From Azolla caroliniana (Eukaryota > Plantae > Polypodiophyta), in NCBI GenBank assembly GCA_043228905.1, contig JBHGNT010000001.1:11284001-11348000 (forward strand): a stretch of DNA of 64,000 bases. The letters run 5' to 3'. The first letter of the stretch is position 1; each line of letters begins with the position of its first letter. A model generated the notes under the pieces. That model searched no databases and was not told where the DNA came from. It saw only the letters and a program-made list of their open reading frames with translations. Below, piece after piece: positions 1 to 57,064 of the stretch. Made by a program: the position numbers and the translations under genes.

Positions 1-1247
1 AAATTGCAAACCTCCAGAAGTCGATGGAGGACGCACGCAACCGTTGCTAGGCCATCATAGACGACGTGCATATCCTTCTCCAAACAAATCGGGAGAGGTT
101 CACAGCGTAATTGAAAATAGCGTTGGACAAAGGATGGATGGCGTGGGCAACCCAGGTAGCGGAATTGCACGCGTATCGTGCGGATTGGGAGAACCGGCGA
201 AAAGATGGTCGAGGTTTCTATAAACTAAATGAGGAGAGCATTGCGGCCATACGAGAGGACCTTGCGCTAGCTCTTAGACGATTTTGGTGAAAGCCAGGAG
301 CAGCTATTTCAACAGATCACACAAGCCGGCAACACGCGAACAAATGAGGAATCCAGCGCGACGCCAATTCCAGGCATGGCAGAAGAACAGGAACCTCATG
401 CCAAATCACCAGAAATTACAATGACGGTGAACAACGCGGACCGACGAGCGGAGTCCCCCACAGTACCAGACAGCGAAACCACTACCCAAGAGGAGGTTCA
501 TCCGCACGAGCCCACACTATCATCGGACCACACGGAGAACGGTGCGGTCTAGGCGGAATCGCAGCCCCACTCCCCGGAACGTACAAAGACGGCCGACACC
601 GCGGAGGAAGTAATGATTGAGACAACGTCGCGGCCGACCGCAAGCACGACGACGGTGGAGCCCAACCCACTAGCTCAAGAAGAGCCCACCGTACCCGGAC
701 CGACCACACATGATGATTGCGACATCGGGAGAAACCATTCCGACCAAATAGGGGAGCCCCACCACGATGCACCTACACCCTACGTCGCCTCCGGACGCGG
801 ACACCGCAGCAGAGCCAAACATCCGGGCCATTTTGGAAAAAGATTAACGGGATGGGTTCGACGTGCCAGGGCACTGTCCCACATGCGTGCCAGGTGTTGT
901 CCGCCGGAATAGTAACCGACGGACAAGAGCGTAGGAATAAGAAATAATATAAGATCATAACGCATGTAACGGCTCACGTAGGAAGCGTGAATGGCTAAAT
1001 AGACCCTGCGTATATAAAGGGCAGAAAACCTCTGATAGAGGGAGTGTGTAATTTTGGAATGTAAAGGAACGTATCATAATAGAATTCTATCTGCTCTGAA
1101 AGTCTGTGTATAGCTACGGCTAATCTACTGTATGTCTGGAATACCAGAGCATGTAAGAACGTAAGTGTAACCATTGCTAAGGAGTCGGTTGTAGCCGTCT
1201 CCCTTATACACTGATAGGTTACAGGGAACATTCCCCTACGCATTACA
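1..1247 (+). mobile_element. Probable 3' end of an LTR retrotransposon (decayed extra ORF plus LTR-like end)
   Basis: A GC-rich reading frame interrupted by TAG/TAA stops (1-290) is followed by Pro/Thr/Glu-rich sequence, then a TATATAAAG-containing LTR-like tract ending ...CATTACA near 1247. No domain recognised; boundaries uncertain. Confidence 0.35.
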
Positions 1248-1569
1248 CATAGATGCCTATTCGTTGTTCCACAACCACTTGGAGGTCTAGGTCGAAGGAC
1301 TGACCGCAGACCGTGTTCCTAATTGGTAACACTTGGACACGTGCATAATCACCACCTCACATTCATACATGATCACCACTTGGCCTTCATACAAGTATGA
1401 CATTTACAAATCATGCATCAACACATGTATTTGTACTATTATGTGTGTGGCTTAGATATGTACAATGGAGGTTCAAATCCCTCGATGTTTTTTTTTTTTT
1501 ATGTCATGACATGGTGTCTATGGTATTTTGTACATACATCCATGATAACCAACACCTAATTAGATGCCC

Positions 1570-2149: not shown

Positions 2150-2823
2150 TGTTGGGATTACGGTCCCTCCGGATGGGATGTCCGGAGACGAATGACGGCA
2201 AGCCCGGTTGCGGTTACGGAACCGGAGGATGAAGAGTACCCGGCATGAAGCCGGATGACGAGTACCCGGATGCGGATCCGGATGATGAAGAGTACCCGGC
2301 ATGAAGCCGGATGAAGAGTACCCGGATACGGATCCGGATGATGAAGACCCCGGTTACGGAGCCGGATGACGAATGTACCCGGAGAGAGATCCGGATGCGG
2401 GGACATATTTGTGAATATGTTTGCTAAGAGCCCTTGAGGCTATATTTGTAAATTGCCCGAAAGTCATATGTGTATAAATATGACTTAGGGCAAACAGTTT
2501 AAAAGTTTTGGTTGCTCATTCGTATGCGAAGTGAGAGCAGCCGAGAGAGAGAGAGAGACGAAGAGGTCGTTGCCTCTGTGTATTACCGCCGCCTGTGGCG
2601 AAGACAGTGAGCTCAAGGTTGTTGCCTTGTAGCTTCACCATTGTACACCTCTGTTTATAGTGATAGTTGGAGTTTGAGGACTCCCGTGGTTTTTCCCATT
2701 TAGGGTTTTCCACGTAAAACATCCTGTGTACCTTTCTCTCTGTTGTCTTCGTGCATATTGTATTTCCCGTTTTCTGTGAGTTGATCCTATTCCTCGGTTG
2801 TGGCCGAGCACTGTTTTTCAACA
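2150..2823 (+). repeat. 5' LTR of copia A
   Basis: Matches 6940-7617 except two G/A substitutions and (GA)8 versus (GA)10. CCGG-rich tandem repeats in U3; TATAAAT near 2473. Confidence 0.97.
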
Positions 2824-2854
2824 AATTGGTATCAGAGCGACGGTAACACAGAAA

Positions 2855-5374
2855 ATGGAAGGCGGCGGTAGTGGGCCTCCGGGCATGATGGTGTTGAACT
2901 CACAGAACTACGCCGATTGGAAGATAAAGATGGAAGACCTTCTCATCGTCCGAGACCTGTACGAACCGATCGACAATGCCGAGGTACCCAAGGGAGTAAT
3001 AGAGTCGGAGTGGAAGCTCCTGAACCGGAAAGCCGTAGCGACGATCCGGCAATATGTCGATGTAAGCGTTCTACAACATGTGGCGAACGACACCAACGCA
3101 TATGAGATGTGGAAGAAGCTGTCGGGCCTCTACGAGAGGAAGAATGCGTTGAACCGGACCTCCCTGATGAGGAAGATTGTGAACCTCAAGTACCGGGACG
3201 GCGAGAATATGGTGGAACACGTGAGCACGTTCATGGGATTCGTGAACCAGCTTGCGGCGATCAAGTTCCCGTTGGAGGATGCAATGCAAGCCATCATTCT
3301 GATGTGTACATTGCCGGAAAGCTGGGAGAACTTGGTGGTGACTCTCAGCACCTCCTGCACCGAAGATAACTTGTCTCTACAAACGGTAAAGTCAAGTATC
3401 TTGAACGAAGAAGCACGTCGGAGAGATAAAGAACCGGCCTCCGACTCGAAGGCGCTGCTTACCGAATCGGAACGGGGAAGACACTGGAACCGGAGTCCGC
3501 AAAGACGGGAGAAGTCGGGGACCCGGTCGCAGTCAAGAGGAAGACCCACCTGCTTCCACTGTGGGAAGCCGGGGCACTTCCGGAAGAATTGTCGGCATTA
3601 CCGAAAGGACAACGGTGCCGACGACACCGATTCGAAGAAGTCACCGGAGAGAAACGGTGCATACCGGGGAGCCACGGACCGGAGAGGTCCGGATCGGCGA
3701 GGGCAGGACCGGAAAGGAACGACAGCACTCGCAGCAAGTGAAGAAGAGATAATGCTCATTACCGAAGAGAGGGAGCTGAACCTTGCCGGTGAAGAGATGA
3801 CCTGGGTGGTCGATTCCGGAGCGTCGTTCCACCTGACCCCGGAGAAGAAATACTTCTCATCCTACACAGCCGGTGAGCACGGCTGTGTCCGGATGGGAAA
3901 TGAAGGTACGTGCCGGATAGCCGGCATAGGAGACGTGTGGCTGATGACATCAACCGGATGCAAGATGCTGCTGAAGGATGTGCGACACGTTCCGGAGGTT
4001 CGATTGAACCTGATTTCGGCCGGGAGGCTAGACGATGAAGGCTACACAGGTAGCATCCGGAATGGCGTAATGAAGTTCAGCAAGGGGAGCCTGATAGTGG
4101 CTCGGGCCCGGAAAGTCAACACACTGTACCTGATGAATGCCCGGTTATGTCCGGAAGAGCTGAATGTGGCAGCCGACACTGCCGGTGAGCTGTGGCACAA
4201 AAGACTGTGCCACATGAGTGAGAAGGGGATGAAGAGGCTTGCAGAAGACAACCTTATTCCAGTGAAGCATGTGCACCTGGAGAAGTGCACCGACTGTCTG
4301 GCCGGTAAGCAAAACTGGACCTCCTTCCACTCAAGGCCACCGACGAGACGTAGTGCACCATTAGAGTTGGTGCACACTGACGTGTGTCAAGTAGAAACGA
4401 AGTCACATGGCGGAGCCCAGTACTTCGTGACATTCATTGATGACCACAGCCGGAAGCTGTGGACGGCACCGTTGAAGACAAAGGACCAAGTATTGTCCGT
4501 CTTCAAAGAACTCAACGCGAGAGTGGAAAGAGAATCCGGCAAGAAGCTGAAAGCGATACGAGCGGATAACGGAGGGGAATACCGGGGACAGTTCACGGAG
4601 TACTGTCGCTCGAAAGGAATCCGGCTCGAGTTTACTGTGCCGAAGACGCCGGAACTGAATGGGCTGGCCGAGAGGATGAACCGGACCATAATGGAGAGGG
4701 TCCGGAGTATGCTGGCGCATGCGAAATTACCCAAGGGGTTTTGGGCTGAGGCAATGTCGACGGCGACATACGTGATAAACAGATCACCCTCAGTACCTTT
4801 GGACGGAGACACGCCGCAGAAAGTGTGGACCGGTAAGGAAGTGTCCTACCGGCATCTGAAGGTGTTCGGGTGTCTCGCATACGTGCATGTGGCAAAGGAC
4901 CGGAGAGGAAAGTTAGATCCAAAGACCCGGCCATGCATATTCCTCGGTTACGGCGACGATGAGTTCGGCTACCGAGTATGGGACCCGGTCGACAAGAAGA
5001 TATTCAGGAGTCGAGATATCGTCTTCATGGAGGACAAGACACTCGCCGACTGGGAGTCAGAGAAGAAGATGAAGAGCTCCAAGTCGACCGGTGAGGATCA
5101 ACTCTACGAGGAGCAGTCCCGACCGGCAAGGGACCGGTTAGCACTCGAGGATCCGGCCGAAGACGGTGAAGAAACAGAACCGGCCGAAGAAGATGAAAAT
5201 GAAACCGGAACCGGCCCCGATCCCGAAATGGATTCGGATGAAGAAGAATCGGAAGAACCGGTTACCGAAGCTCCGGAACGGAGATATCCTCTAAGAGAGA
5301 GAAGGGCCCCCCCGGAGATTTCCGGAACCAGAGCACGTGCTGCTAACCGACGAGGGGGAGCCGGAGAGCTTTGA
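2855..5374 (+). CDS. Copia A Gag-protease-integrase ORF
   Basis: ATG at 2855. CCHC knuckle CFHCGKPGHFRKNC, protease WVVDSGAS, integrase HHCC plus VHTD / RADNGGEY / NGLAER. The frame ends after a C7 run at 5307-5313. Confidence 0.92.
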   Translation: MEGGGSGPPGMMVLNSQNYADWKIKMEDLLIVRDLYEPIDNAEVPKGVIESEWKLLNRKAVATIRQYVDVSVLQHVANDTNAYEMWKKLSGLYERKNALNRTSLMRKIVNLKYRDGENMVEHVSTFMGFVNQLAAIKFPLEDAMQAIILMCTLPESWENLVVTLSTSCTEDNLSLQTVKSSILNEEARRRDKEPASDSKALLTESERGRHWNRSPQRREKSGTRSQSRGRPTCFHCGKPGHFRKNCRHYRKDNGADDTDSKKSPERNGAYRGATDRRGPDRRGQDRKGTTALAASEEEIMLITEERELNLAGEEMTWVVDSGASFHLTPEKKYFSSYTAGEHGCVRMGNEGTCRIAGIGDVWLMTSTGCKMLLKDVRHVPEVRLNLISAGRLDDEGYTGSIRNGVMKFSKGSLIVARARKVNTLYLMNARLCPEELNVAADTAGELWHKRLCHMSEKGMKRLAEDNLIPVKHVHLEKCTDCLAGKQNWTSFHSRPPTRRSAPLELVHTDVCQVETKSHGGAQYFVTFIDDHSRKLWTAPLKTKDQVLSVFKELNARVERESGKKLKAIRADNGGEYRGQFTEYCRSKGIRLEFTVPKTPELNGLAERMNRTIMERVRSMLAHAKLPKGFWAEAMSTATYVINRSPSVPLDGDTPQKVWTGKEVSYRHLKVFGCLAYVHVAKDRRGKLDPKTRPCIFLGYGDDEFGYRVWDPVDKKIFRSRDIVFMEDKTLADWESEKKMKSSKSTGEDQLYEEQSRPARDRLALEDPAEDGEETEPAEEDENETGTGPDPEMDSDEEESEEPVTEAPERRYPLRERRAPPEISGTRARAANRRGGAGEL

Positions 5375-6929
5375 AGAAGCAAAGCATGACACCCAGAGCC
5401 GCAGGTGGTTGAGTGCCATGCAGGACGAGATGGATTCCCTGCATGAGAACCACACATATGAACTTGTGGAGTTGCCGAAAGGAAAGCGGGCACTTCGAAA
5501 CAAGTGGGTGTTCAAGCTGAAGCCGGGAGATGCCGGAAACCCCCCGAGATACAAAGCCAGGATCGTGGTGAAGGGGTTTCAGCAGAAGAAGGGCGTCGAC
5601 TTCGACGAGATATTTGCCCCGGTAGTGAAGATGACCTCCATCCGGACGGTGCTGAGCATAGCGGCAAGCATGGACCTCGAGGTAGAACAGATGGACGTGA
5701 AGACGGCATTCCTTCACGGTGACCTCGAAGAAGAGATCTACATGCAGCAACCGGAAGGATTCGAGAAGAAAGGGAAGGAGCACCTGGTATGCCGGTTGAA
5801 GAAGAGCCTTTACGGACTGAAGCAGGCTCCCCGGCAATGGTACCGGAAGTTCGACTCTTTCATGACCGACGAAGGGTACCACAAAACGCAGTCCGATCAC
5901 TGCGTGTTTGTGAAGAAGTTCGAAGGAGGAGACTTTCTAATACTCCTCTTATACGTGGACGACATGTTGATCGTCGGACGGGACCAGGTCAAGATACGGA
6001 TGCTCAAGAAGGCTCTTCACCGAACCTTCTCAATGAAGGACCTGGGTCCGGCGAGGCAAATACTAGGGATGCACATCATCCGGGACCGGAAGAAGAAGCA
6101 ATTGTGGCTGTCACAGGAGAAGTACGTGACAAAGGTGCTTCACCGGTTCAACATGTCGGAAGCAAGACCGGTCGGGTCAACTCTCCCGGCAAACTGCAAG
6201 TTGTCCAGCAAGCAAAGCCCCAAGACAAAGGCTGAGAAGGAGGATATGATGAAAGTACCATATGCCTCTGCCGTCGGAAGCTTGATGTACGCAATGGTGT
6301 GTACAAGACCGGACATTGGATATGCAGTCGGAGTGGTGAGCCGGTACATGAGCAATCCCGGCAAAGAGCACTGGAACGCGGCCAAGTGGATACTCCGATA
6401 CCTGAAGGGCACGGCAAACGTGTGCCTCCGATTCGGCTCCGGTAAGCCCGAACTCGACGGCTTTACCGATTCGGATATGTCGGCTGATGCAGATACCAGC
6501 CGGTCCACATCAGGGTATGTGATGACGTATGCAGGGGGAGCTGTTTCGTGGCAGTCGAGGCTGCAGAAGACGGTTGCGTTGTCAACCACGGAGGCGGAGT
6601 ACATGGCGGCTGTTGAAGCCGGCAAGGAAATAATATGGATGAAGGACTTCATTAGAGAGCTCGGTATCCGGCAAAAGGAGTACCTACTCTACTGCGACAG
6701 TCAGAGTGCCATCCACCTTGCGAAGAACGCGGCCTATCACTCCCGGACGAAGCACATCCAGCGAAGATATCACTGGATCCGGGAAAGGATAGAAGACCAG
6801 GAGTTCGTGCTGACGAAGATCCACACGGACGAGAACGGGTCAGATATGCTGACCAAAGTGCTCACACCCGACAAGCTGGAAGCATGCCGGAAGAGGATCG
6901 GATTGGAGAGACATCCCATGCCGAAGTGA
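5337..6929 (+). CDS. Copia A reverse transcriptase-RNase H (frameshifted continuation of pol)
   Basis: Motifs YKARIV, QMDVKTAFLHG, SLYGLKQAPRQW, LLYVDDM and RNase H TDSD...STTEAEY...DMLTK. Confidence 0.92.
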   Translation: MLLTDEGEPESFEEAKHDTQSRRWLSAMQDEMDSLHENHTYELVELPKGKRALRNKWVFKLKPGDAGNPPRYKARIVVKGFQQKKGVDFDEIFAPVVKMTSIRTVLSIAASMDLEVEQMDVKTAFLHGDLEEEIYMQQPEGFEKKGKEHLVCRLKKSLYGLKQAPRQWYRKFDSFMTDEGYHKTQSDHCVFVKKFEGGDFLILLLYVDDMLIVGRDQVKIRMLKKALHRTFSMKDLGPARQILGMHIIRDRKKKQLWLSQEKYVTKVLHRFNMSEARPVGSTLPANCKLSSKQSPKTKAEKEDMMKVPYASAVGSLMYAMVCTRPDIGYAVGVVSRYMSNPGKEHWNAAKWILRYLKGTANVCLRFGSGKPELDGFTDSDMSADADTSRSTSGYVMTYAGGAVSWQSRLQKTVALSTTEAEYMAAVEAGKEIIWMKDFIRELGIRQKEYLLYCDSQSAIHLAKNAAYHSRTKHIQRRYHWIRERIEDQEFVLTKIHTDENGSDMLTKVLTPDKLEACRKRIGLERHPMPK

Positions 6930-6939
6930 AGGGGGAGTT

Positions 6940-7617
6940 TGTTGGGATTACGGTCCCTCCGGATGGGATGTCCGGAGACGAATGACGGCAAGCCCGGTTG
7001 CGGTTACGGAACCGGAGGATGAAGAGTACCCGGCATGAAGCCGGATGACGAGTACCCGGATGCGGATCCGGATGATGAAGAGTACCCGGCATGAAGCCGG
7101 ATGAAGAGTACCCGGATACGGATCCGGATGATGAAGACCCCGGTTACGGAGCCGAATGACGAATGTACCCGGAGAGAGATCCGGATGCGGGGACATATTT
7201 GTGAATATGTTTGCTAAGAGCCCTTGAGGCTATATTTGTAAATTGCCCGAAAGTCATATGTGTATAAATATGACTTAGGGCAAACAGTTTAAAAGTTTTG
7301 GTTGCTCATTCGTATGCGAAGTGAGAGCAGCCGAGAGAGAGAGAGAGAGAGACGAAGAGGTCGTTGCCTCTGTGTATTACCGCCGCCTGTGGCGAAGACA
7401 GTGAGCTCAAGGTTGTTGCCTTGTAGCTTCACCATTGTACACCTCTGTTTATAGTGATAGTTGAAGTTTGAGGACTCCCGTGGTTTTTCCCATTTAGGGT
7501 TTTCCACGTAAAACATCCTGTGTACCTTTCTCTCTGTTGTCTTCGTGCATATTGTATTTCCCGTTTTCTGTGAGTTGATCCTATTCCTCGGTTGTGGCCG
7601 AGCACTGTTTTTCAACA
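6940..7617 (+). repeat. 3' LTR of copia A
   Basis: Direct repeat of 2150-2823, preceded by the PPT and followed by the TSD. Confidence 0.97.
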
Positions 7618-19786: not shown

Positions 19787-21940
19787 CTAATGCAAATCCT
19801 CCTTTGCTAGAAGAGCCATGATTCCGCCTCCATGGACTCTTCGTTCCAATGATGGGAAGGAAAACATTGACATATCATTTGAAGGTGGTGATATTAACAA
19901 TGACGTTTCATTTGAAACCATATTGTGAGTGCTGTAGCTTCTATTACTCTTCTGGAGGAGAGGTTTGTGCACCAGAGGTAAATTCACCTTCTTGTTGGAG
20001 AAAGTCTTTGGAAGAGTCATTTTCTGATGCATTTGAATGGGGTTCAGATCAATGCCATTCGATGGTGGTATAACAGAATCAACAGCATCAAGCTTGTATT
20101 CTACTTTCTCACTATCACATTGCATAGAACTGGAATGTGAGGCAGAAAATTGGAATTCACTACCTTTTGATGATGATTCAGACTTGGATGGTTGATCTGA
20201 CACTCCATGACCCGAAAAAGATGCTGGCGTAGGCATTATATTGCAATATGTAGGAGGGTTCATACAACCACTTCTCTCAATAAGCTGCTGCATAAAGATG
20301 CTATGAGAAGCACAAACTCCTGATGATTTACTTCTAGCAAATTGATCCAAAAGTGCATTTTCATCACTATGAGCTTCATACACTGAGCCTTCTCTACACC
20401 AAAAGCATCTTTTCCCACCACCATGAGCTTTACAGAAATCTGTACTTCCTTGTGCACTTTTGTCACAATTGTCAAATTTGCAACGCTTTCCACCTCCATG
20501 CTTCACACAACAATCAGTTCTTCCCCTTGCACTTTTTGTACAACCGGGGACTGAACACCTTTTACCACCACCATGAGCGACACAAAATAAAGTGCCACCA
20601 TGAACACTTTTCGTGCACGTATTGCCACCAAAAGTGCATCTTTTTCCGCCACCATGAGCTTTGCAAAGCGACGTGCTTCCTTCTGCACCTTTTGTACAAC
20701 CTTCAAAAATGCATCTCTTACCACCACCATGTCCTTTACAAAACAAAGTGCTTCCTTGTGCACCTTTACTACAATCTGGAAATTGACATCTCCTTCCTCC
20801 ACCATGAGATATGCAGAGCCCTGATATGCCTTCAGCACTTTTAATACACCCTTCCCTCTGACATCGCTTGCCACCACCATGTCGGATGCATTTGCCAGTC
20901 TTTCCTCTGGCAGCTTTTGTACAACCTTCGTATCCACATCTATGACCTCCACCATGAGCAATGCAAAAGTCTGTCCGTCCTTCAGCACTTTTAAGGCATC
21001 CTAAGCTCTGGCATCGAGGACCACCACCATGAGTCTTGCAAAAGTTTGTTCGGCTCTCAGCACCTTTTGTACAATTAGGCCTCTGGCATCGCCTTCCTCC
21101 ACCATGTGTAATACAAAGACCCGATGTGCCTCTTGCACCAGTTTCACACCCAGGAAACTTACATGTCTTCTTAGACCGAACACCAATGCCAGATGATGGA
21201 GACAGTTCACTACTAACAAACGAGCTACTAGAACAAGATTTTATAGTGTTTGGTTCATCAGCTTTTTTCACCAACCTTTCTTCAGTTTCAGCTAGTGAGA
21301 ATTTTCCGTTGGGTTGAATTGGCCAAAGACCAACATCATGCGAACTAACTACATCATGATTCCTTCGCTTCATCCTCTTTGCAGCACTTGTGGAGCCTTC
21401 ATCTAACATAGCATTTACTTTCTGAGGTGTATTATGGATATTAAAGTCATTATACCACATTCCTGTCACACTATCTGAATCATCTGAAAATGAATTCCCA
21501 GCCAATCTCAGCTGTGAATACACAACTTCATTCTCTACACTAGAAAATGACAGTCTCTGGTTCCTAGAATTTGTAAAGCTTTTCAATCTGGATTCATTGA
21601 GAAAATCGGATTGTCCAGAAGGAATCAAGTTCAAATTTGTTGAAGAACGAGAATCATAACCTCGGTGCTCTGATAAGCCATGATGTTTAAATCCAAGGCT
21701 TAGCTCTATCGGCATGCAATCTTCATTTCTATTCACTTCCCATGACATACTACTATAAGTAAGCTCACTATGGACACTTTCAGCTGTAGTGCTCAAACCT
21801 AGGACTAGCTGAAGATCATCTCTGTCGATAAGTTTGCCACCATTTCCATTTTGGCCATTATCCTTTGAGTGATCAAAAGGGGACATAGATTCATCAATAC
21901 TTTCCCTAGTTGCCCATTGATGGGGTAGTGTAGGCTTCAT
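19787..21940 (-). CDS. WRKY19-like zinc-finger repeat protein (C-x4-C...C-x2-HGGG repeats; no WRKY domain), single coding exon
   Basis: Ten repeats such as RCQFPDCSKGAQGSTLFCKGHGGG plus a degenerate 11th, and the family-typical C-terminal ERRVHGGGIMALL. First in-frame ATG at 21940. A probable 5' UTR intron runs from about 22053 to 23037 (CAG|GTAAGG donor on the minus strand). Confidence 0.9.
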   Translation of the reverse strand: MKPTLPHQWATRESIDESMSPFDHSKDNGQNGNGGKLIDRDDLQLVLGLSTTAESVHSELTYSSMSWEVNRNEDCMPIELSLGFKHHGLSEHRGYDSRSSTNLNLIPSGQSDFLNESRLKSFTNSRNQRLSFSSVENEVVYSQLRLAGNSFSDDSDSVTGMWYNDFNIHNTPQKVNAMLDEGSTSAAKRMKRRNHDVVSSHDVGLWPIQPNGKFSLAETEERLVKKADEPNTIKSCSSSSFVSSELSPSSGIGVRSKKTCKFPGCETGARGTSGLCITHGGGRRCQRPNCTKGAESRTNFCKTHGGGPRCQSLGCLKSAEGRTDFCIAHGGGHRCGYEGCTKAARGKTGKCIRHGGGKRCQREGCIKSAEGISGLCISHGGGRRCQFPDCSKGAQGSTLFCKGHGGGKRCIFEGCTKGAEGSTSLCKAHGGGKRCTFGGNTCTKSVHGGTLFCVAHGGGKRCSVPGCTKSARGRTDCCVKHGGGKRCKFDNCDKSAQGSTDFCKAHGGGKRCFWCREGSVYEAHSDENALLDQFARSKSSGVCASHSIFMQQLIERSGCMNPPTYCNIMPTPASFSGHGVSDQPSKSESSSKGSEFQFSASHSSSMQCDSEKVEYKLDAVDSVIPPSNGIDLNPIQMHQKMTLPKTFSNKKVNLPLVHKPLLQKSNRSYSTHNMVSNETSLLISPPSNDMSMFSFPSLERRVHGGGIMALLAKEDLH

Positions 21941-24900
21941 GATTAAAAGACAATAATACTTGGTAACAACAGGATCAATGAAGCTGATCAATTTGACTCG
22001 AGGGATATTCCAAACTTGGTTAAATATCCCTATTGATTAGAATATCAAACAGCCTACACCATTATGTTTATATATGATTCATCCCAATAATCAGTGTGTC
22101 GTCAAATTTCTGAGCATCGAATGAATGTGCCGAACCTTCTTTACCCGTGGCATGTTGTTCTTCCATTCAGCAGTGAAGAGTCAATAATCAACTTCCCAAA
22201 CAAAGAGTAAAGAAAGAGAACACGCCTTCAATACATGTGGAAAACTATATTTGTTTACAGCATTATAAAAACAATAGAGATAATAATCAGCATCCGAAAA
22301 GAGTAAAAACAATAGATAATTGTATTACATGTGGAAAACCATATTTTTACAAAATAAACAATATAACTACATGAACTGCAACAAAACAATTAGTACATAG
22401 TCTAATTACGTAATTGGCATCAAAACAAATGGTATGACATAGCTAACATTGACACAATAAGTTATACATTATATATTTACATAGTTGACATCAAAACAAA
22501 GCTTACTACATAGTCAACATCAAGGCAGTAAGTACAACATAATACATAATATAAGTACATAACCAGCATAAAAAAGGGTATTACATAATATAACTATATA
22601 GCCAGTATAAAAAGGAGTAGTATATACCAATAAGTGAAAGAAAAATAAAAGCAAAATTATGCTCAATCTTAGTGTCTGTTTATATGTATATGTATATGTG
22701 TTTGTATGTGTATATGTATGTGTTTGTATATGTATATGTATACGTATATGGATTGATGTTATTCTAGCAACATATAAACAGATACGACAACAAATAAATC
22801 AGAAAAAAAACGAGAGTAAAATAGAGGAAGGAATTTAGAATGACAAAATTCACGCGAAAGAAATTAACTTTTCTCTAGATAAATGAATGGAAATTCTGTG
22901 CTTTAAGAATGAAGATACATCCACAAGAGTACAAATATCGAATGGAAAACGATGCTGCGCAAGATAAACATACCCAAAATGTGAAGGAAAAGGAATTCAA
23001 AAGAAAAGATGCAGCAAAGGAGAAAACAAGAACCTTACCTGATATTATCCACGTTTTAAACAGCTCCAAGAGAAGGCAAAATCTATGGCTATCTCTGTTT
23101 TACACTCTTTTTCCTCTGAGTGCTCTGTTTCTGCACTCTGTGTGTACTTCGAAACCCTAGATCTGGAATCTTCAAAAGCCTCCAATGAAAGGGGTGGGGG
23201 TTTTTTTCATAAATACTTTACGATTTTATTTCATGATGATGAATCATGATATGTATATCATTTATGGCCTCCTCCTCCATTACTATGCTCTCTCTCTCTC
23301 TATCTCATATGTTAGAACCAACCAACTCTTAGCCAAAAGAAAGAAAAAAGGAATCAAGTTTCTCCATGATATTGGTTGGTTGATTGATTGATAGGAGAGC
23401 TTGATCACACATGAATTGAATTGAGCACATACACTACTACCTCTACCTATTTCTGCGCCCATTTCTTATGTGACGATAAGCTTGTTATTGTCCCTTGCCC
23501 CTGGGCATGTAATCTCGACACGTAATTTGTTTCTAATGTGTTGGTAATAGGTATCGATGTGTTGCCTGACTCATCTCAACTCCTCCCTTTTGCATTTTTG
23601 GATCAACGTGTTTGTATCACACCACCCACGTGATCGTCGTGATTTCGCTGCCGGCTCCTTACTTAGAACTAATGGGGTGTTTTTTAGGTATGCCGTTTTT
23701 TGCCTCTTATGTGCATTAATTTTGTCGTAAAACATTCTCTTATGCTTGTTTTGCTCTCCCTTCAATGCATGACTAGAAACGCTCACTCGTTACTATTCGA
23801 CAAACATTCCATGTACCATCTCGATTGTACAACTTTTTATATTATTGTTGTGTGCAATGAGATCGCAATTAAACAACATCACCCTTATGTTTGTTTTCGC
23901 ATACATGTTCTATTGTTTTGTGAATGCGACAAGATCCCCGAAAAATTGGTTTGCTATTGGTTTATTGCATTAGTTGTGATTCGTGAATGAATAAACATGT
24001 CACCATTTTATTTTGATTAAATGATACAAACCGACATGACTTTATGGAAATGTTTTTATGTTCTAAACATGCACATCATGAAACCAATTATTTATACAAA
24101 TAGTTATAGGTTTCATACTTCATAGTCTTGCATTTTGTCATGTTGTCTCATCATTCATGTAACCGATTGGCCCCTCTCAAAATGATTGATTACGTGCAAG
24201 AAGAGAATGGAAGACGATTATTTTGGTTTTTCAAGCCATCCCAACAACAGTTTGGACGTTGCGCTTAACTAGCCTGAATCATATGTCTATTACACATCAT
24301 GTCATATGCACATGTGAACTATGCATAATGTACCTGTTTGTGTGTTTGTGACACATGTCAATATCTAGGTACACTCTGATTAAATGGAATGACATTGTAT
24401 AAATCTAGAGGTCTTAATGGGTGTGCTTTCTTTGAGTATATCTACATTAAATTATTTATTAACATCTTTATTAAAAAGTGTGTTGTGATCAGATGTCATG
24501 GTTGCAATTAAATGATGCAAACCAACATAACTTGAGCAAATGTTTTTTTATGGCCAATGGATGATGGCATCATGAAACACGCTCAACTTTGAGGATGCTT
24601 TCAGGTTATTCAATGCACATTGTATATAAGTTATACATATACATACACATGTCACTCGTGGCAAATGATGTCAATGGTAAATGCCATGTTAGAAAAACTT
24701 AACCTTGTTAACTTAATCCCATTGATTTAGCAAATAATGCATAATTAATTAGTATGACAAAAAATGGAGCTATAAAATCATTACCTTATGTAGGTCCTCT
24801 GCTTAGGATTTCTGCTCAAGTAGATATTCATTTCATTACACAGAATAATTTTTGTTACACAAACAATGAGGTAGAAACTACTTCAAAAGTTGAGCCCATA

Positions 24901-27600: not shown

Positions 27601-28197
27601 CAAATGATATGCTTTGGGCCATCTATGCTCTATATGAGCAAGTCTCTGGGAGTGAAAGGTAGGGTTGGACCATGCAAGTAACTGTCCAACGGGCATGCCA
27701 AGAGTTAGCCGGTCAGCTACCCGGGATCATGTTGAGCGACAAGCTCAACCGGAGCCGGATCGGCTGAATAAGCCTGAGCCGGTAAGCGAGAGGAATCAGT
27801 ATGCCGGTGAGCAACTGAGCTGGTAAGCAGTAAGGAACCCAAACCCAAATTTGGCCTTAGAAGACATTAATATATCTTTCTTTCTTTTCTTTTCTTTCTC
27901 TCTCTGTTATGATATGGCAAGACTCAAACCCATGACCTTATACTACATGGGTCAAGCTCTCGACCATTAGACTATACATTGTAATACATAGAATATTATT
28001 TTCATTTATGTTTTATTATAGAAAATTAATGTATATTCCAAAATTCTCTGGAACATTCTAGAAACTTCAAGAGTATTCCTTAGAACACTATAAAAGGAGG
28101 CAGAAGGCATTATTTCGAACCAAATCGGTTCAACGCCAATCTTAAGCCTCCTAGCTATTGTACATTTTCTTCACATAATATATATCTTTTCTTATCA

Positions 28198-28251
<54 letters not shown>

Positions 28252-29604: not shown

Positions 29605-30675
29605 TGTCGTGAAGATCTGTCACTACGCGCGGATCGTGAGGCGGAACCGCCGGGGTTCTGGACCGGAAGGATTCAAAGTCGATACAAGCTTTGGCAAGAA
29701 AGTACTTAAGATAGATTGGGAAAGAGAGAAGTTGAGATTAAACGATTGAGAAAGATTGATTGAACTTTTAACTTTAGATTTAAGAAATAAGTTACACGAT
29801 CAATTTGATAACGAATTTCCTCCTCTTAATTTTCATAAAAAAAAACCGTGTTTTTTCTCCTCCCCCTTCCCTCTTTTATAGATGCTCTCATGCATATGAT
29901 GCATGTGAGGGTACAAGACATGCATAAATTGCATGTTTGCCATTTGGCGCTTATGTATTACATGTGGTGCATGATAACCATGTCACTCATTTTAGTTCTC
30001 ACGTATGAGAATTTACATGTAAAAGTACAATGATAGAAATATAATTTCAACTAAATAGCATGGCTTAATGGTAAACCAATTGACTCCTAACTTAGAGGTG
30101 CAAGGTTCGAATCCTTACTTGCCCTCCTTGTATATGTAAATATGTAAATATATTTATATATTTATTTATCTAGTTGCAGGACGTCGGTTAGCTGGATGCC
30201 GTCGGTTACCGGTGCCGTCGCCGGATACCGTGGGTTACCGGTGCCGCCGTCGGATGCCGTCGCCGGATCACCGGCTCCATCGCCGGTCCGGTTTTGGTTG
30301 GCCAAAACCCTTTACGAGTAGCTAGCCCACCTCCACTCTTAGTTCAAGTTACCTTGAACTCTCTATGCTCCACACATAGACACAAAGATAATATCTTTTG
30401 CTCCACCTTATATATGATGAGAGCTGTATTTGTCGTGCCTATGTGGGATATCTCACAATTTTCTCCTTTCCTTTTACAAACTTTATACCCTCATATCTTG
30501 ACATTTAGTTGTCCGTTTCTCGTGTAATAAAGTGCATTCGAAACCTCCATCATTTTGTACTTAGATATTAAATCTATTTAAAATGTTATCTTCACAATTA
30601 TTGTACTACGTGATTCATACTCGATTTCGTACGTTTTATAGGATTTTCACACTATTGGCGAAAATCTTCACGACA
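29605..30675 (-). mobile_element. Solo LTR 1 (gypsy; TGTCGTGA-type terminus)
   Basis: Perfect 12-bp terminal inverted repeat TGTCGTGAAGAT/ATCTTCACGACA; 4-bp TSD CCGT (29601-29604 / 30676-30679). TATA on the minus strand at 29874-29880. Termini resemble the LTR at 61263-62214. Confidence 0.88.
30054..30122 (+). promoter_or_regulatory. tRNA-like Pol III A-box/B-box module inside solo LTR 1
   Basis: A-box TGGCTTAATGG at 30061-30071 and B-box GGTTCGAATCC at 30104-30114 in a T-arm-like stem AAGG/CCTT; tRNA spacing. Confidence 0.75.
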
Positions 30676-30679
30676 CCGT

Positions 30680-34302: not shown

Positions 34303-34762
34303 TACATTGTAATACATAGAATATTATTTTCATTTATGTTTTATTATAGAAAATTGATGTATATTCCAGAATTCTCTGGAACATTCTAGAAACTTCAGGA
34401 GTATTCCTTAGAACACTATAAAAGGAGGCACAAGGTATTATTTCGAACCAAATCGGTTCAACGCCAGTCTTAAGCCTCCTAGCTATTGTACATTTTCTTC
34501 ACATAATATATATCTTTTCTTATCATCACTCTCTCTCTCTCTCTCGATCTCTCTCTCCCTCCCTCTCACTCACTCTTTCCTTCTCTCGAGAGTTCTTCAA
34601 CTCTCTTAGTACTAATACTTCTTTTAGTACTAATTCCTTCTCTGTCTTAGTATTGTTCCTGACACACACACACACACTCTCTCTCTGTGTTGTTCTTTCT
34701 AACGCTTCCGCAAGCAATCTTTAACATGGTATCAGAGCGCCTGGGTCATACAAGATGCACCA

Positions 34763-37700
34763 ACTACGCATCTTGGTCATACAAGATGCACCAGTACCTA
34801 CTTGGGCATGGCTACTGGAGTTATGTCGACGGAGTGAACGACTCAGCACCGGAGACGACACATAAGGACTTCCCAGTGTGGGAACAGGCAGCAAGTAGGG
34901 TGATGTACTGCTTCGCGTCCAGTGTCGGTGACCAGCTGCTCAGCCATATCCGTGACGCCAAGACACCGAAGGATGCTTGGGGAAACTTGAAAAAGGTTTT
35001 CTCCGCAAGCACCACTGCCCGGAAGCTGCAACTCAGACAAGAGTTGAGCAATGTTCGACAGAAGAACATGTCGGTGGCAGATTACACAGCCCGGATCAAA
35101 GGGATCTGTGACTCACTTGCCTCTATTAACGTCACCATAGAGGAAGACGAGATGGTGCAGGTCTGTCTTGGAGGCATGGTGTCCAAGTTCGGAGCTTTCC
35201 GGACTGCGGTTTGTACAAGGGAGAATACGCCCTCATTTTTCGACTTACAGTTGATGCTCCTTGTAGAGGAGAACCACGCTGGTGCATCTACCAGTGCATC
35301 CCCAGACAACCGGATGCTGTACACGGGAGCAGATCGGTCCCGTGGGCATGGTGGATGAGGCAGGTCGGCACACAATGGAGGTGGCCGGCAAGAGCAGGAA
35401 CGAAGGCACAATGAGCGTGCCGACAACAGTTCTAGGACTTCCACAAGCAGAGGGAGTCAAGGTGGTGCCGGAGGCTGGCAAGACAAATCCGCTACGAAAT
35501 GCTGGCACTGTGGCAAAAAGGGCCACAAGGAAAGCGAGTGTTGGAGAAAGCGTGCCGATTCGGACAAATCCGGATCCAGCAAGACCAGTAAGGAAGGACG
35601 GCAAAGCTTGCACTACGCAAATGGATCGGGAAGATCCAAGAACGGTAAGGGGCCAGCCTTGGTGATGAAGCACAAGGCAAACTCAATGAAGAAAACCACT
35701 TCCAAATCGGAGGAAGTGTGGTACGTTGACTCCGGCGCATCAAACCACATGACGAGCCACGAGGAGTGGTTCTCCTTTTTGGAGAAGCCGGATCAACCGG
35801 GAGTTGTCGAAACCGGAGACGACACTCCCCACTCGATCGTGCATGTCGGAGAAGTCCCTTTGAGCCACGTCGGACAGAGGGGGAAGTTGATGAATGTATT
35901 ACATGTTCCGACGATCACGAAGAACCTGGTGTCGGTCGGACAAATCGTCGACCAGGGGATGCAGGTGCGGTTTACGCACCTCAGGTGCTTCATTGAGGAT
36001 GAGGGTGAAGTTATTGCGCAAGGGCGCAGAGATGGGAGGAAGTTTATCCTCAACACCAATGATGTCGGCACCGCACTGTTTGCCAAAGGACAGAAGGTCG
36101 AGTCGGATATCGACCTATGGCACAAGCGGATCGGCCACGTCAACTACCAGAGGCTTCAAGACCTGCAACCGGAACAAGTCGTTTTCGGTTTGCCGAAGTT
36201 TAGCGGCCGGAGAGCCCAGATTTGTGAAGCCTGCCAACTCAGGAAGCAACACCGGCTTCCATTCCCCACTGAAAGAAATCGAAGCCGTAACAAGCTCGAT
36301 CTTATCCATTCGGATGTGTGGGGACCGGCACAAAATGTTAGCATTGGCGGGAGTCGATATTTCGTCTTCTTCATCGACGACTACACGCGGCATACGTGGA
36401 TCTACCTCATTGAGCGGAAGAGCGAAGTCTTCGAGTGTTTCCGGAGCCTCCAGAAGATGGTGGAACGGGAATCAGAGAGGAAGATCAAATGCCTACGGTC
36501 GGATGGCGGAAAAGAGTACTTTTCCGGCCAATTCAACAACTATCTGCAACAAAAAGGAATTCGGCGAGAATTCGGCTGCAGATACACACCACAACAGAAC
36601 GGTGTGGTCGAAGGAAGAATCGGTCGCTGATTGACGCGACTAGGGCAATGCTGGAGGAAAAGAGCATGCCCAAGTTCTATTGGGCGGAGGCGGTCCAAAC
36701 GGCCGTTTACATCCAGAACCGGATTGGGGACAAGGTGTCAGCTCACGAGCTGTATTTCGGGCGCAAGCCAAATTTGAGACACCTCCGGATATTCGACAGC
36801 TTAGCCTATGTACATGTGCCGGATGAGAAGCGGAGAAAGCTGGATGCAAAATCGGAAAAATGCATCCTAGTTGGCTATGCTCAAGAGCAAAAGGGGTATA
36901 AGTGTTATAACACCCGGACGAAGCAGGTCCGAGTCAGCTGAGATGTCGAGTTTGATGAATCGGCATCGTGGTATTCTTTACCAACTCTGACTTCCGATCC
37001 CGACCTGATGTCGAAGGATGGGGCTTGTGAGCCCGAACCGGCCCAGGTAGAGAAAGATGAAGCCGGGACTCAAGATGAGAGCTCGGAATCATTCCAGTTA
37101 AGCGGATTGAATGAGAGACTGGAGTCCAACCAGTCGGATGATGAGACGGCGAGTAGTGGAGACTCTGTCGTGCTCTCCCCGTGCAAGGAACCGAGGAGAC
37201 GGTTCACACGCAAAGAGAAAGGGAAGCAGAAGATGCCGGAATTCGAGACTGGCAATGATGAGTCGGATCGGTGCGTATATGACTTATGCAAGGACATAGG
37301 CAGATCTTTAGGAACGAAGATCGAACCGGCCAAGAAGGGTCTCATACTGGGTAACGGTGAGCTACGCCGGTCCACCCGCCAGAAGGATCTCGTTAAACGG
37401 TACAGGTATAACGAGTACATGGCACATCATTATGCGTACATGACCAAGGTCGCGGAAGTGCATGAGCTGTAGAGCTACGCAGAAGCGGCGAAGGACACAA
37501 ATTGGCATGCCGCTATGGAGGAAGAAATGCGGGCACTAGATGCCAACGGAACTTGGGACCTGGTTGACCCTCCCCATCACTGTAAAACTGATCGGATGCA
37601 AGTGGGTGTACAAGGTAAAGTACAATGCCGACGGTACAGTTACCCGGTACAAGGTTCGGTTAGTGGCGAAGGGATATGCGCAGACCCACGGAATCAACTA

Positions 37701-39306
37701 CGATGAGACCTTCGCTCCTGTAGCAAAGATGACGACGGTTCGTGTGGTACTGGCGGTTGCTGCGGCAAGGGGGTGGCATCTTCATCAGATGGATGTGAAG
37801 AATGCCTTCCTTCAAGGAGATCTTGAAGAAGAAGTCTTTATGACTCAACCCCCCGGATTTCAATCGGAGGTGAACAAGTCGGCGGTATGCCGGCTGAGGA
37901 AGTCGTTGTACGGCTTGAAGCAAGTCCCCCGTGCTTGGAATGCTAAGATCATGCACCGGTTGCGAAAGATGGGGTTTGGTGCCTCTAAGTCGGACTCTTC
38001 CCTGTTCATCCGTCAAGGCTCAAATGGTCCAGTATGTATCTTACTCTATGTTGATCATTTAGTCATCACCGGCCCAGGTCTTTCGGAAATCAACCGCGTC
38101 AAGTCCCAGTTTTCAGACACATTCGATATGAAGGACTTGGGGGACCTTCATTATTTTTTGGGGATCGAGGTCATCCGCACCCCCGACGGCATATTGCTTT
38201 CTCAACGCCATTATGTGTTGAATATACTGTACAAGTTCGGCATGACGGAATGCCGACCTGTCTCCACACCCCTGGACCGGAATCAGAAGATCTGTCCCAA
38301 CTCCGGACAAGCCTGCGATGAGAAAAGGTTTCGACAAATAGTCGGAAGCCTGATCTACTTGACCATCACCCGACCCGACATTAGCTATCCGGTCGGAGTG
38401 GTAAGACAATTCATGCAGAAGCCGACCGTGGAGCACCTTCAGTGCGTGCAACGAATACTGAGGTATGTAAGCAGCACTAAGGACCGGGGGCTCTTATACC
38501 AGCAAGGTATAACCGAAGAGCTTGTCGACTACACGGATGCTGACTGGGCTGGTGATGCAACGGATCGTCGCTCAACTTCCGGCTTTATGTTTTCTCTTGG
38601 GAGCGCGGCTGTTGCGTGGAGCAACAAAAAGCAGCCAATAGTGGCTCTATCCAGCACTGAGGCTGAATATCGGGGCGCAACCGTTGCCACCTGCGAAGCC
38701 ATTTGGCTTCGGCGACTACTGCAAGACCTAAGGATCGAGGTACCGACCTCGATCCTTATCTACTACGATAACCTCAGCAACATGCAGCTCGCCAAGAACC
38801 CTGTGTTCCATGCTCACACAAAGCACATAGAAGTGCATTATCACTTCGTGTGTGAGCGGGTCCTGAGCGGTGAAGTTGAACTACGGTATGTTCACACGGA
38901 TCGGCAAGTTGCCAACATCTTCACCAAACCGCTTGGGTCGGACAAGTTGCAGCACTTTACCGAAATGCTTGGTGTTCAGCATCTCGACATGCCGCACTTG
39001 AGGGGGAGACGCAAAGGCAAAAAAACTATTGAATCCGTAGGTAAGAGAAGAACCGGTAGAGGTGGCGACAAGAAGAAAAATGAAGCCGAGTCGACGAAGG
39101 AAATCGGCACATCCGAACAGGTCGGAGTGAGCGGCTGTGAAGAAGAAGTGTACACTCAGGAAGAGAAGTGCATGCTATGCGGAGGTCATCACGATCGTAA
39201 TGGCCATGATGCGGAGTCGAATGAAGAATTCGACTTCGGTGAACCGGCTGAAGAAGCCAAGGGAAGCACGGAGAAGGCCAAGACCCGGACGGGTGCGATG
39301 TGGTGA
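34763..39306 (+). pseudogene. Copia C gag-pol (stops and frameshifts; gag start lost)
   Basis: NYASWSYKMHQYL gag, CWHCGKKGHKESEC, WYVDSGAS, IHSD / RSDGGKEY, RT with mutated YVDHL, RNase H TDADWAG. Confidence 0.92.
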
Positions 39307-51666: not shown

Positions 51667-52253
51667 AGAAATAAAAGAGCTTCCATTACAGCTTCATTTG
51701 TGTATCTAACATCTGTCTATATCTTCTTGTGCTCCTTTTGTGTTGTTTGCTAAGCATAACAAATAGGTTCTCACATATGTTTCGGCATATTTGTCCATTA
51801 ACTGGTATCAGAGTAATCCGCAGCTCGGCGACAACAAATAGCAGAAAAAGCTGAAAGGAAAAATACCAAGTTAGCAAATCTCACTTTCAGAAGAATCATG
51901 GCATCTGTTGGGATTACGGTCCCTCTGGATGGGATGGTCAGATGTCCGGGAATCGGGAATGAAGACCCCGGCTACGGAGCCGGATGATGAAGACCCCGGC
52001 TACGGAGCCGGATGATGAAGACCCGGTTCCGGATCCGGATGATGAAGACCCCGGCTACGGAGCCGGATGACGAATGTACCCGGAGAGAGATCCGGATGCG
52101 GGGACATATTTGTGAATATGTTTGCCAAGGGCCCTTGAGGCTATATTTGTAAATAGCCCGAAAGTCATATGTGTATAAATATGACTTAGGGCAAACAGTT
52201 TTGTGGTTACTCATTTTTCTGGTTTTTTCACTTAGAGAGAGCTAAGTGAGCAG

Positions 52254-52308
<55 letters not shown>

Positions 52309-52603
52309 GAAGAGGTCGTTGCCTCTGTGTATTACCGCCGCCTGTGGCGAAGACAGTGAGCTCAAGGTTGTTGCCTTGTAGCTTCACCATTGTACATCTC
52401 TGTTTATAGTGATAGTTGGAGTTTGAGGACTCCCGTGGTTTTTTCCCATTTAGGGTTTTCCACGTGAAACATCCTGTGTACTCTTCTCTCTATTGTCTTT
52501 GTGCATTTTGTATTTCCTGTTTTCTGGGAGTTGATCCTATTCCTCGGTTGTGACCAAGCACTGTGTTCAACAAAGTGGTATCAGAGCGACGGTAACACAG
52601 AAA

Positions 52604-54883: not shown

Positions 54884-56423
54884 CACCCATAGCCGCAGGT
54901 GGTTAAGTGCCATGCAGGAGGAGATGGATTCCCTGCATGAGAACCACACATATGAACTTGTGGAGTTGCCGAAAGGAAAGCGGGCACTTCGAAACAAGTG
55001 GGTGTTCAAGCTGAAACCGGGAGATGCCGGAAACCCCCCGAGATACAAAGCCAGGATCGTGGTGAAGGGGTTCCAGCAGAAGAAGGGCGTCGACTTCAAC
55101 GAGATATTTGCCCCGGTAGTGAAGATGACCTCCATCCGGACGGTGCTGAGCATAGCGGCAAGCATGGACCTCGAGGTAGAACAGATGGACGTGAAGACGG
55201 CATTCCTTCACTGTGACCTCGAAGAAGAGATCTACATGCAGCAACCGGAAGGATTCGAGAAGAAAGGGAAGGAGCACCTGGTATGCCGGTTGAAGAAGAG
55301 CCTTTACGGACTGAAGCAGGCTCCCCGGCAATGGTACCGGAAGTTCGACTCTTTCATGACCGACGAAGGGTACCACAAAACGCAGTCCGATCACTGCGTG
55401 TTTGTGAAGAAGTTCGAAGGAGGAGACTTTCTAATACTCCTCCTGTACGTGGACGACAAGTTGATCGTCGGACGGGACCAGGTCAAGATACGGATGCTGA
55501 AGAAAGCGCTTCACCGAACCTTCTCAATGAAGGACCTGGGTCCGGCGAGGCAAATACTAGGGATGCACATCATCCGGGACCGGAAGAAGAAGCAGTTGTG
55601 GCTGTCACAGGAGAAGTATGTGACAAAGGTGCTTCACCGGTTCAACATGTCGGAAGCAAGACCGGTCGGGTCAACCCTCCCGGCAAACTGCAAGTTGTCC
55701 AGCAAGCAAAGCCCCAAGACAAAGGCTGAGAAGGAGGACATGATGAAAGTACCATATGCCTCTACCGTCAGAAGCTTGATGTACGCAATGGTGTGTACAA
55801 GACCGGACATAGGATATGCAGTCGGAGTGGTGAGCCGGTACATGAGCAATCCCGGCAAAGAGCACTGGAACGCGGCCAAGTGGATACTCCGATACCTGAA
55901 GGGCACGACAAACGTGTGCCTCCGATTCGGCTCCGGTAAGCCCGAACTCGACGGCTTTACCGATTCGGATATGTCGGCTGATGCAGATACCAGCCGGTCC
56001 ACATTAGGGTATGTGATGACGTATGCAGGGGGAGCTGTTTCGTGGCAGTTGAGGCTGCAGAAGACGGTTGTGTTGTCAACCACGGAGGTGGAGTACATGG
56101 CGGCTGTTGAAGCCGGCAAGGAAATAATATGGATGAAGGACTTCATTAGAGAGCTCGGTATCTGGCAGGAGGAGTACCGACTCTACTGCGACAGTCAGAG
56201 TGCCATCCACCTTGCGAAGAACGCGGCCTATCACTCCCGGACGAAGCACATCCAGCGAAGATATCACTGGATCTGGGAAAGGATAGAAAACCAGGAGTTC
56301 GTGCTGACGAAGATCCACACGGACGAGAACGGGTCAGATATGCTGACCAAAGTGCTCACACCCGACAAGCTGGAAGCGTGCCGGAAGAGGGTCGGACTGG
56401 AAAGACATCCCATGCCGAAGTGA
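54753..56423 (+). CDS. Copia B RT-RNase H (separated from INT by a frameshift)
   Basis: Same motifs as A, with substitutions such as YVDDK and FLHC. Confidence 0.85.
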   Translation, partial: PVTEAPERRYPLRERRAPRRFPEPEHVLLTDEGEPESFEEAKLDTHSRRWLSAMQEEMDSLHENHTYELVELPKGKRALRNKWVFKLKPGDAGNPPRYKARIVVKGFQQKKGVDFNEIFAPVVKMTSIRTVLSIAASMDLEVEQMDVKTAFLHCDLEEEIYMQQPEGFEKKGKEHLVCRLKKSLYGLKQAPRQWYRKFDSFMTDEGYHKTQSDHCVFVKKFEGGDFLILLLYVDDKLIVGRDQVKIRMLKKALHRTFSMKDLGPARQILGMHIIRDRKKKQLWLSQEKYVTKVLHRFNMSEARPVGSTLPANCKLSSKQSPKTKAEKEDMMKVPYASTVRSLMYAMVCTRPDIGYAVGVVSRYMSNPGKEHWNAAKWILRYLKGTTNVCLRFGSGKPELDGFTDSDMSADADTSRSTLGYVMTYAGGAVSWQLRLQKTVVLSTTEVEYMAAVEAGKEIIWMKDFIRELGIWQEEYRLYCDSQSAIHLAKNAAYHSRTKHIQRRYHWIWERIENQEFVLTKIHTDENGSDMLTKVLTPDKLEACRKRVGLERHPMPK

Positions 56424-56809: not shown

Positions 56810-56844
<35 letters not shown>

Positions 56845-57064
56845 GAAGAGGTCGTTGCCTCTGTGTATTACCGCCGCCTGTGGCGAAGACAGTGAGCTCA
56901 AGGTTGTTGCCTTGTAGCTTCACCATTGTACATCTCTGTTTATAGTGATAGTTGGAGTTTGAGGACTCCCGTGGTTTTTTCCCATTTAGGGTTTTCCACG
57001 TGAAACATCCTGTGTACTCTTCTCTCTATTGTCTTTGTGCATTTTGTATTTCCTGTTTTCTGGG

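Follow-up and report, generated by a model that had tools for sequence, protein, structure and literature searches.

A CCGG-rich copia element in Azolla caroliniana

The stretch of DNA analysed here, called the window below, comprises 64,000 nucleotides of the fern Azolla caroliniana (assembly GCA_043228905.1, contig JBHGNT010000001.1, positions 11,284,001 to 11,348,000 of the forward strand) and carries near its start a full-length Ty1/copia retrotransposon, copia A, in which the tetramer CCGG is enriched in the coding sequence and in the U3 part of the long terminal repeats (LTRs). The features of the window are collected in Table 1. Copia A is bounded by a target duplication of 5 bp (AAGAT), its LTRs differ at 3 of 680 bases (99% identity), and the order of domains between them, gag-protease (PR)-integrase (IN)-reverse transcriptase (RT)-RNase H (RH), is that of copia elements. 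Its named homologues (63–68%) are labelled TNT 1-94-like, and the assignment as Tnt1/Tork-like follows these labels rather than a reference tree. The primer-binding site is presumably of the tRNA-Met type. A frameshift lies near 5300–5340, inside the IN-RT linker, and no env-like open reading frame (ORF) or polypurine-tract linker was found before the 3′ LTR, with pol ending at 6929 and the LTR beginning at 6940. Many of the U3 CCGG form dyad pairs, for example CCGGAT-N4-ATCCGG, with an 8-base spacer being the most frequent among copies, as the first-pass annotation of the sequence had claimed in describing the U3 as built from CCGG pairs. The TATA/R/U5 part holds 2 CCGG among 796 CG in 37 related, non-independent copies, which makes it not enriched rather than clearly depleted. 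Within the gag-protease-integrase frame, CCGG density peaks in low-constraint linkers.

In the genome (523 Mb, 22 large contigs), no family measured is more abundant than the A family, which is also one of the youngest. Around 5% of an even sample (32,228 of 600,000 bases) matches copia A at an identity of at least 85%, and these bases carry 583 of the 1,966 CCGG in the sample. Median LTR divergence is 0.27% for 39 copies of subfamily A1 and 2.27% for 13 copies of the sister subfamily A2; the A1 sample leans young because its copies were mostly chosen as best matches.

The first-pass annotation had counted 20 CCGG between positions 3421 and 4023, against 2 GGCC, 1 GCGC and no CGCG, and had put the composition-based expectation at about 4. 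The counts are exact and the computed expectation is 4.1, but over the 4,020 coding bases of copia A the true size of the excess is 1.3–1.8-fold, not 5-fold. These bases hold 78 CCGG, compared with 42.3 expected under a synonymous shuffle (z 9.1), 56.5 under a shuffle preserving the dinucleotides at codon junctions (z 6.4) and 59.1 under a second-order Markov model (z 4.5). None of the 1000 shuffles of either kind reached 78, and CCGG ranked first of the 256 tetramers under all three nulls, so the excess persists under the codon- and dinucleotide-preserving shuffles that the annotation had proposed. The other GC palindromes, GCGC and CGCG, are scarce. All of the 39 A copies examined carry 78–121 CCGG each, and the coding parts of copia B, which belongs to the same family, carry 61 against 32/44 expected.

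General GC or CpG richness was rejected as the cause: 22 copia loci of the G046 type (GC ~0.55, CG ~85 per kb) gave z values of −1.3 to 1.7. Among 30 copia RT loci, an excess was absent from the 22 of this GC-matched family and mild in 7 of family C, while 1 locus lacks a long frame, and no CCGG excess was found in 30 young chromovirus loci once codon junctions were preserved. Host genes are likewise not CCGG-rich, as the annotation had stated (1 against 1.3 expected in the WRKY19-like gene and 2 against 1.4 in the PH-domain gene), and the possibility it had raised, that all GC-rich DNA of this genome is alike, is answered by these genes and the GC-matched copias. Codon or amino-acid bias was rejected on the shuffles, on the spread of CCGG over the three reading frames (24/17/37) and on its presence in the non-coding U3. 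CCGG enrichment is real and family-specific.

It is also a derived, graded trait. In 80 relatives of the A lineage from metagenome contigs, CCGG per kb is 0–3.3 at 56–68% RT identity, 1.2–7.3 at 76–78% and 5.8–14.7 at 84–92%, reaching ~18.5 in A and A2, and GC at third codon positions (GC3) climbs alongside. Avoidance of CWG, or of methylation overall, was rejected, CWG not being avoided and CG rising from ~20 to 71 per kb along the same lineage. Overall, the elements carry CCGG at 12–20 per kb and U3 at 64 per kb, compared with 0.42 per kb for AT-rich genomic DNA. Several LTR families bear CCGG clusters; one locus (L101:722-914) has 17 CCGG in 190 bases, in GGAACCGG repeats, and another (L310, ~5001–5500) packs 23 into 500 bases, both in unassigned elements. 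Among GC-rich copias that lack the CCGG excess (L067 of the G046 family, L122 and L301:2-2680), CCGA/TCGG are at or near the top at silent sites, and the gypsies L101/L302, L301 and L085 rank TACG first; each family may favour a CG-containing word of its own.

Elsewhere in the window, the annotation had called copia C CCGG-rich, and an excess is indeed present, although only a mild one (34 against 24/24 expected); the patch which it had placed in a solo LTR holds seven CCGG by count. Copia C (27700–39808) contains chromovirus D (27905–34664), which in turn contains the 1.1-kb LTR-like insertion (~29600–30680). Tracts of (GA)n or (CT)n of variable length lie in the LTRs of copia A/B and gypsy D (2544–2558, 7334–7352, 52256–52307 and 28202–28245). 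The 3′ LTR of copia B ends early, at ~57055–57090, where it gives way to some four copies of the plant telomere repeat (TTTAGGG), resembling a healed break. The WRKY19-like gene contains nine Pfam-matched repeats spaced 75 bases apart and forms a long branch within the fern clade (support 100/99), which places the host among ferns.

Table 1. Features of the window, with positions counted from its first base.
Feature	Positions	Strand	Remarks
3′ end of Athila-like gypsy	1..1300	+	22 CCGG vs 14/19 expected, weak excess
Copia A	2150..7617	+	full-length Tnt1/Tork-like Ty1/copia; 111 CCGG
U3 repeat array of 5′ LTR	2150..2400	+	16 CCGG, 64 per kb
TATA/R/U5 part of LTR, with (GA)n tract	2401..2823	+	zero CCGG
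Primer-binding site TGGTATCAGAGC	2827..2838	+	presumably tRNA-Met type
gag-protease-integrase frame	2855..5374	+	CCGG 10–31 per kb
RT-RNase H frame	5343..6929	+	25 CCGG
3′ LTR of copia A	6940..7617	+	
U3 array repeat in 3′ LTR	6940–7190	+	15 CCGG
Host gene with PH-domain exon	10394–12920	+	used as control
WRKY19-like zinc-finger host gene	19787..22036	-	negative control, 1 CCGG
CCGG cluster in copia C LTR	27709..27807	+	6 CCGG
CCGG-rich repeat patch in dispersed LTR-like insertion	30181..30292	+	7 CCGG; relatives in L111, L127 and L094
Copia C coding region	34663..39306	+	distant family, 40% RT identity; mild CCGG excess
Copia B, family of A	51906..57064	+	shorter IN-RT linker

Retention of CCGG at silent sites and its fate after insertion

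Silent sites provided evidence that the replicating lineages keep CCGG. Where a silent transition decides whether the inner CG is present, CCGG was found at 41 of 42 sites, compared with 96 of 199 for DCGH (48%) and 440 of 662 for CHH (66%). At silent sites CCGG is also commoner than every one of the 12 tetramers that differ from it by one base, with ratios of 115:12 for transitions (expected fraction 0.65) and 216:19 for transversions (expected fraction 0.58), counts which share sites and are not independent. Arginine codons are split 45:4 between CGN and AGR after C and 20:32 elsewhere (p 1e-8; controls not significant), a shift that deamination or T:G repair cannot bring about because no transition connects the two classes.

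Inherited changes in the A family point the same way. With branch changes polarised by outgroup copies, silent changes on the A1 and A2 lineages were found at 3 of 118 CCGG positions, 23 of 158 at other CG and 46 of 505 at CHH (p 0.0006 and 0.013), and inherited silent losses at the inner CG numbered 0 of 63 at CCGG, compared with 33 of 303 (p 0.003). A1 and A2 have 53 CCGG sites in common, 8 being A1-only and 14 A2-only, which is turnover at constant density. By standard weak-selection formulas, the occupancy log-odds (1.6–3.8) and the six-fold lower loss rate both agree with a selection strength S of ~2–4 per site, suggesting selection on CCGG of about the strength of codon bias.

Differences between the two LTRs of one copy are strictly post-insertion changes, and there CCGG fares like any CG. 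The inner CG of CCGG had changed at 28 of 1,331 sites and other CG at 73 of 2,994 (p 0.59), while the outer C of CCGG had changed at 14 of 1,319 sites, CWG at 38 of 1,290 and CHH at 31 of 9,301. For rare changes pooled over four families, the observed and expected numbers were 177 and 185 at the inner CG, 243 and 354 at the outer C of CCG, and 459 and 1,668 at CHH. The mutation rate of the inner CG of CCGG in inserted copies is 0.96 times the CG mean, and the outer C of CCG stands at 0.69 compared with 1.14 for CWG (about 40% less), equally low outside CCGG. CCGG is a very mutable tetramer because all four of its cytosines are hypermutable in inserted copies, and older copies lose it faster than other CG. 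These rates suggest that each of the four cytosines is methylated in inserted copies, with less methylation on the outer ones.

The first-pass annotation had proposed that active lineages maintain CCGG against decay, either through different handling of the overlapping CG/CHG context by MET1/CMT or because a protein reads the word. A methylation shelter is rejected by the near-average rate of the inner CG in inserted copies, the reduction at the outer C being a general CCG effect, whereas maintenance against decay stands, with a protein reader as the best remaining explanation. Among the methyltransferase loci (G000, L040–L045) are three DRM-like catalytic domains, each in a single exon, and two CMT-like loci; MET1 was not found in shallow genome searches, which missed even the CMT BAH domain. 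Since CCGG occupies nearly every silent opportunity and yet is lost at a normal rate from inserted copies, the replicating lineages are likely under weak selection, and we regard it as probable that the enrichment is selected.

Two further claims of the annotation concerned decay. It had taken at least six CCGG sites of copia A that read CTGG or CCAG in copia B as mutation after insertion. Six such differences are there, but they are weak evidence for it because all six alter an amino acid (four Arg to Trp), only three are private to B and the B LTRs differ at 1 of 603 bases; clean evidence comes from the comparison of LTR pairs. One of these losses is common to a group of nine A1 copies, which suggests mobilisation in trans. 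The claim that the older elements D/E carry TCGG, CCGA and TCGA as decay products found no support: the two gypsies have no TCGA excess (z 0.3 and −0.4), and a young copia without CCGG excess has TCGG/CCGA at 10.7 and 14.5 per kb, above the two gypsies and copia F. Copia F has a mild TCGA excess (24 against 16), but CTGG and CCAG, to which decay should mainly lead, are not in excess there. The older elements are lettered here by position (D, E, F), and the letters may not equal those of the annotation.

CCGG-rich gypsies and a candidate reader

CCGG is also enriched in gypsy elements of the same genome. An Athila-like gypsy (L095) carries 112 CCGG against 74/91 expected, with CCGG first of the 256 tetramers, and a DUF4100 gypsy carries 70 against 48/55; no excess was found in the relatives L101/L302 and L127/L306 or in L122-type copia. 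The locus L307 was left out of the gypsy tetramer comparison, being mixed with a copia A frame. The gypsy lineage shows a gradient of its own, from 12 CCGG per kb down to 2–4 per kb at 66–68% identity.

The L095 element encodes an extra ORF of 988 residues, whose N-terminal domain has 195 homologues and, in L095 and in 2 of 20 additional copies, lies within frames of 975–1011 residues. This domain is conserved at the protein level, with 39 of 60 identical residues differing silently, and an atlas lead of 0.87 connects it to the PF20167 and PF03078 clusters (Transposase_32/ATHILA). A confident structure model of the domain (pLDDT 88.5) was compared with 48,161 chains using VIA-align, in a search run expressly to test the VANC lead. 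The best match was the VANC21-DNA structure 9lnk_A (Z 6.7, root-mean-square deviation 3.8, 172 of 196 residues), the next having a Z of 2.9. At the sequence level, the L095 ORF gave no match. This middling match of a predicted model suggests a VANC21-like fold for the domain; a shared fold alone is no demonstration of function. The relative L101/L302, in which the domain has diverged, has no CCGG excess (CCGG rank 191–202, TACG first), so that a short word is enriched in the encoding family and differs between relatives, as in VANC-type systems. The word itself, at four bases and mostly coding, is not one of 8–9 bases limited to non-coding tandem repeats. A homologue of this ORF begins just before the window (L301:7897) in the gypsy at the window's start and is broken. 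Copia A encodes no VANC-like protein among its domains.

In Arabidopsis, VANC proteins are described as binding short words accumulated in their own families and removing methylation there, and VANC6 as acting also on the unrelated AT9TSD1, a carrier of its word, a precedent for cross-family use (PMC5735166). We propose tentatively that CCGG is a dense, weakly selected anti-silencing tag, with the predicted VANC21-fold product of the CCGG-rich gypsy as the leading candidate reader. Dense CCGG, which we infer to be read on DNA, would recruit this sequence-specific protein to element DNA, and target specificity would arise from density, the elements and their U3 standing far above AT-rich genomic DNA. 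Copia A would then profit as a free rider, much as AT9TSD1 does with VANC6. That the gypsy protein itself reads dense CCGG, and that unrelated copia and gypsy families recoded codon by codon share the tag, is possible but doubtful; if true, fern LTR retrotransposons would run a shared anti-silencing network, paid for with the most mutable tetramer of the genome.

A number of observations weigh against such a tag. Inherited losses that change an amino acid occur no less often at CCGG (9/194 compared with 10/423), silent and non-silent inherited losses combined do not differ significantly (9/257 and 43/726, p 0.15), and in the gypsy family a shortage of inherited silent losses is not seen (2/53 and 8/303). 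Gains of CCGG are not significantly fast, with 5 changes at 26 opportunities, 4 of which made CCGG (p 0.37). Pooled controls, which included the mildly CCGG-enriched L085, also lean to CCGG at transversions (165:79, 0.68 against 0.57). Such mixed polymorphism results are as weak selection predicts, yet a mutation or conversion bias acting on the lineage could also produce them. Any protection must be infrequent or short-lived, since CCGG in inserted copies mutates as it would if methylated, and other abundant families manage without the word. VANC motifs are 8–9 bases long and non-coding, whereas the CCGG flanks here show little preference beyond the four bases, and no preferred spacing of coding CCGG was found, unlike at dimer sites. 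The VANC21 match lies under the VIA-align clear-match level of 8, at 9% identity; a Foldseek search with the gypsy-domain model found no match in PDB or BFVD, and none of 109 homologues of the domain had a Pfam match.

The word could be selected and yet read by a host protein (a methyl-CG reader, a demethylase recruiter or a transcription factor on CGG...CCG dyads) that the families exploit independently. This explanation, which we consider unlikely, shares all of the selection evidence and fits the convergence of several unrelated families on CCGG. A CCGG dyad motif is attributed to LOB-domain proteins, and LOB-domain genes are present in the genome (18 matches), although a literature search gave no support for a link between that motif and these proteins. 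The U3 dyads resemble Sirevirus motifs proposed as cis elements (PMC2829016), and a special MET1/CMT coupling of CCG methylation is described (PMC6453930, PMC5221884). Host genes, however, have no CCGG excess, coding CCGG lacks the spacing of dimer sites, and many equally exposed families ignore the word.

Selection could also be absent, with a context-specific mutation or repair bias acting in replicating copies, for example through CCGG being unmethylated in source copies or through biased mismatch repair. The mixed polymorphism tests, the climb of GC3 with CCGG and a mild genome-wide context effect (CG mutating at 0.91 of the mean after a pyrimidine and 1.17 after a purine) lend this some support. 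It is nevertheless improbable: the silent change rate at CCGG (2.5%) lies below that at CHH (9.1%), transversion neighbours are as depleted as transition neighbours, inserted copies give CCGG no shelter and GC3-matched families have no excess.

An action of the word while the element is RNA or cDNA (in packaging, reverse transcription or stability) is similarly improbable. Copia A does fold more stably than its shuffles (z −4.5), local folds pair 33 of 71 CCGG with a second CCGG, and the palindrome offers no strand clue. The folding excess, however, remains when CCGG is frozen, is matched in copias without CCGG excess (z −3.5 to −5.0) and is missing from the CCGG-rich gypsy L095; GCGC and CGCG are scarce, and R/U5 is without CCGG. 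RNA folding as the cause of CCGG was therefore rejected, the stability excess not being tied to CCGG. Least probable is self-restraint, in which the four methylatable cytosines of each CCGG ensure firm silencing, less harm to the host and persistence: all four are hypermutable as if methylated, but other CG, also with two methyl sites, stay under the CHH baseline (48% against 66%), CWG is near it, and the A family heads those measured in abundance and ranks among the youngest.

The enrichment bears on the escape of plant retrotransposons from DNA methylation and on the extra ORFs of Athila-like elements, to which reviews assign no settled role. Within the gag-pol of a family making up ~5% of the genome sample, CCGG is a four-base word under measurable constraint that opposes the main force of mutation, and a named candidate reader makes the idea of a CCGG tag directly checkable. 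Even with a host reader, selection of one tetramer across the coding sequences of several unrelated families would amount to a chromatin signal, of which the literature search found no description. No prior report of CCGG selection in retrotransposon coding sequence was found in a search that left out subscription papers, recent VANC work and supplements, and newer VANC literature may already connect Athila ORFs to VANC; for the DCGG context, the literature search yielded nothing useful.

Comparison with known systems

One close parallel is with VANC and the VANDAL elements, as far as described in PMC5735166. There, too, a short word has been amassed in a family, in part as tandem repeats, the word varies between related families and an unrelated element shares it; here a CCGG-rich family encodes a protein of predicted similar fold. 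VANDALs are Mutator-like DNA transposons, however, whereas these are LTR retrotransposons, and the word is a 4-base palindrome that is itself a CG/CHG target rather than one of 8–9 bases. It is spread through coding sequence by synonymous choice, and the VANC-like protein is encoded by the gypsy and not by copia A.

Sirevirus LTRs carry motifs with a CGG-CCG core (for example, CACCGGACTGTCCGGTG in Opie/Ji), and the likeness lies in arrays of CCGG-containing dyads upstream of the TATA box (PMC2829016, PMC4728375). Copia A does have CGG-CCG dyad repeats in its upstream LTR. In the available parts of these sources the motifs are called Sirevirus-specific and are non-coding, whereas copia A is Tnt1-like without env and most of its CCGG lie singly in gag-pol. 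ONSEN, with an LTR lacking CG and CHG, is a further case of copia composition shaped around plant methylation contexts (PMC3907296, as far as available); copia A is its opposite, gaining the most methylatable tetramer and not avoiding CWG.

In angiosperms, CCG methylation is reported to be lower and MET1-dependent (PMC5221884, PMC6453930), which resembles the reduced mutation of the outer C of CCG relative to CWG seen here; the effect covers all CCG, leaves the inner CG unprotected and gives no account of family specificity. Finally, Athila/Tat elements carry extra 3′ ORFs (Transposase_32/ATHILA ORF-1) that, like the extra ORF of L095, are sense ORFs after integrase. The available parts of PMC6317226 and PMC7264820 describe no DNA target or anti-silencing role for them, whereas here such an ORF is paired with a candidate word.

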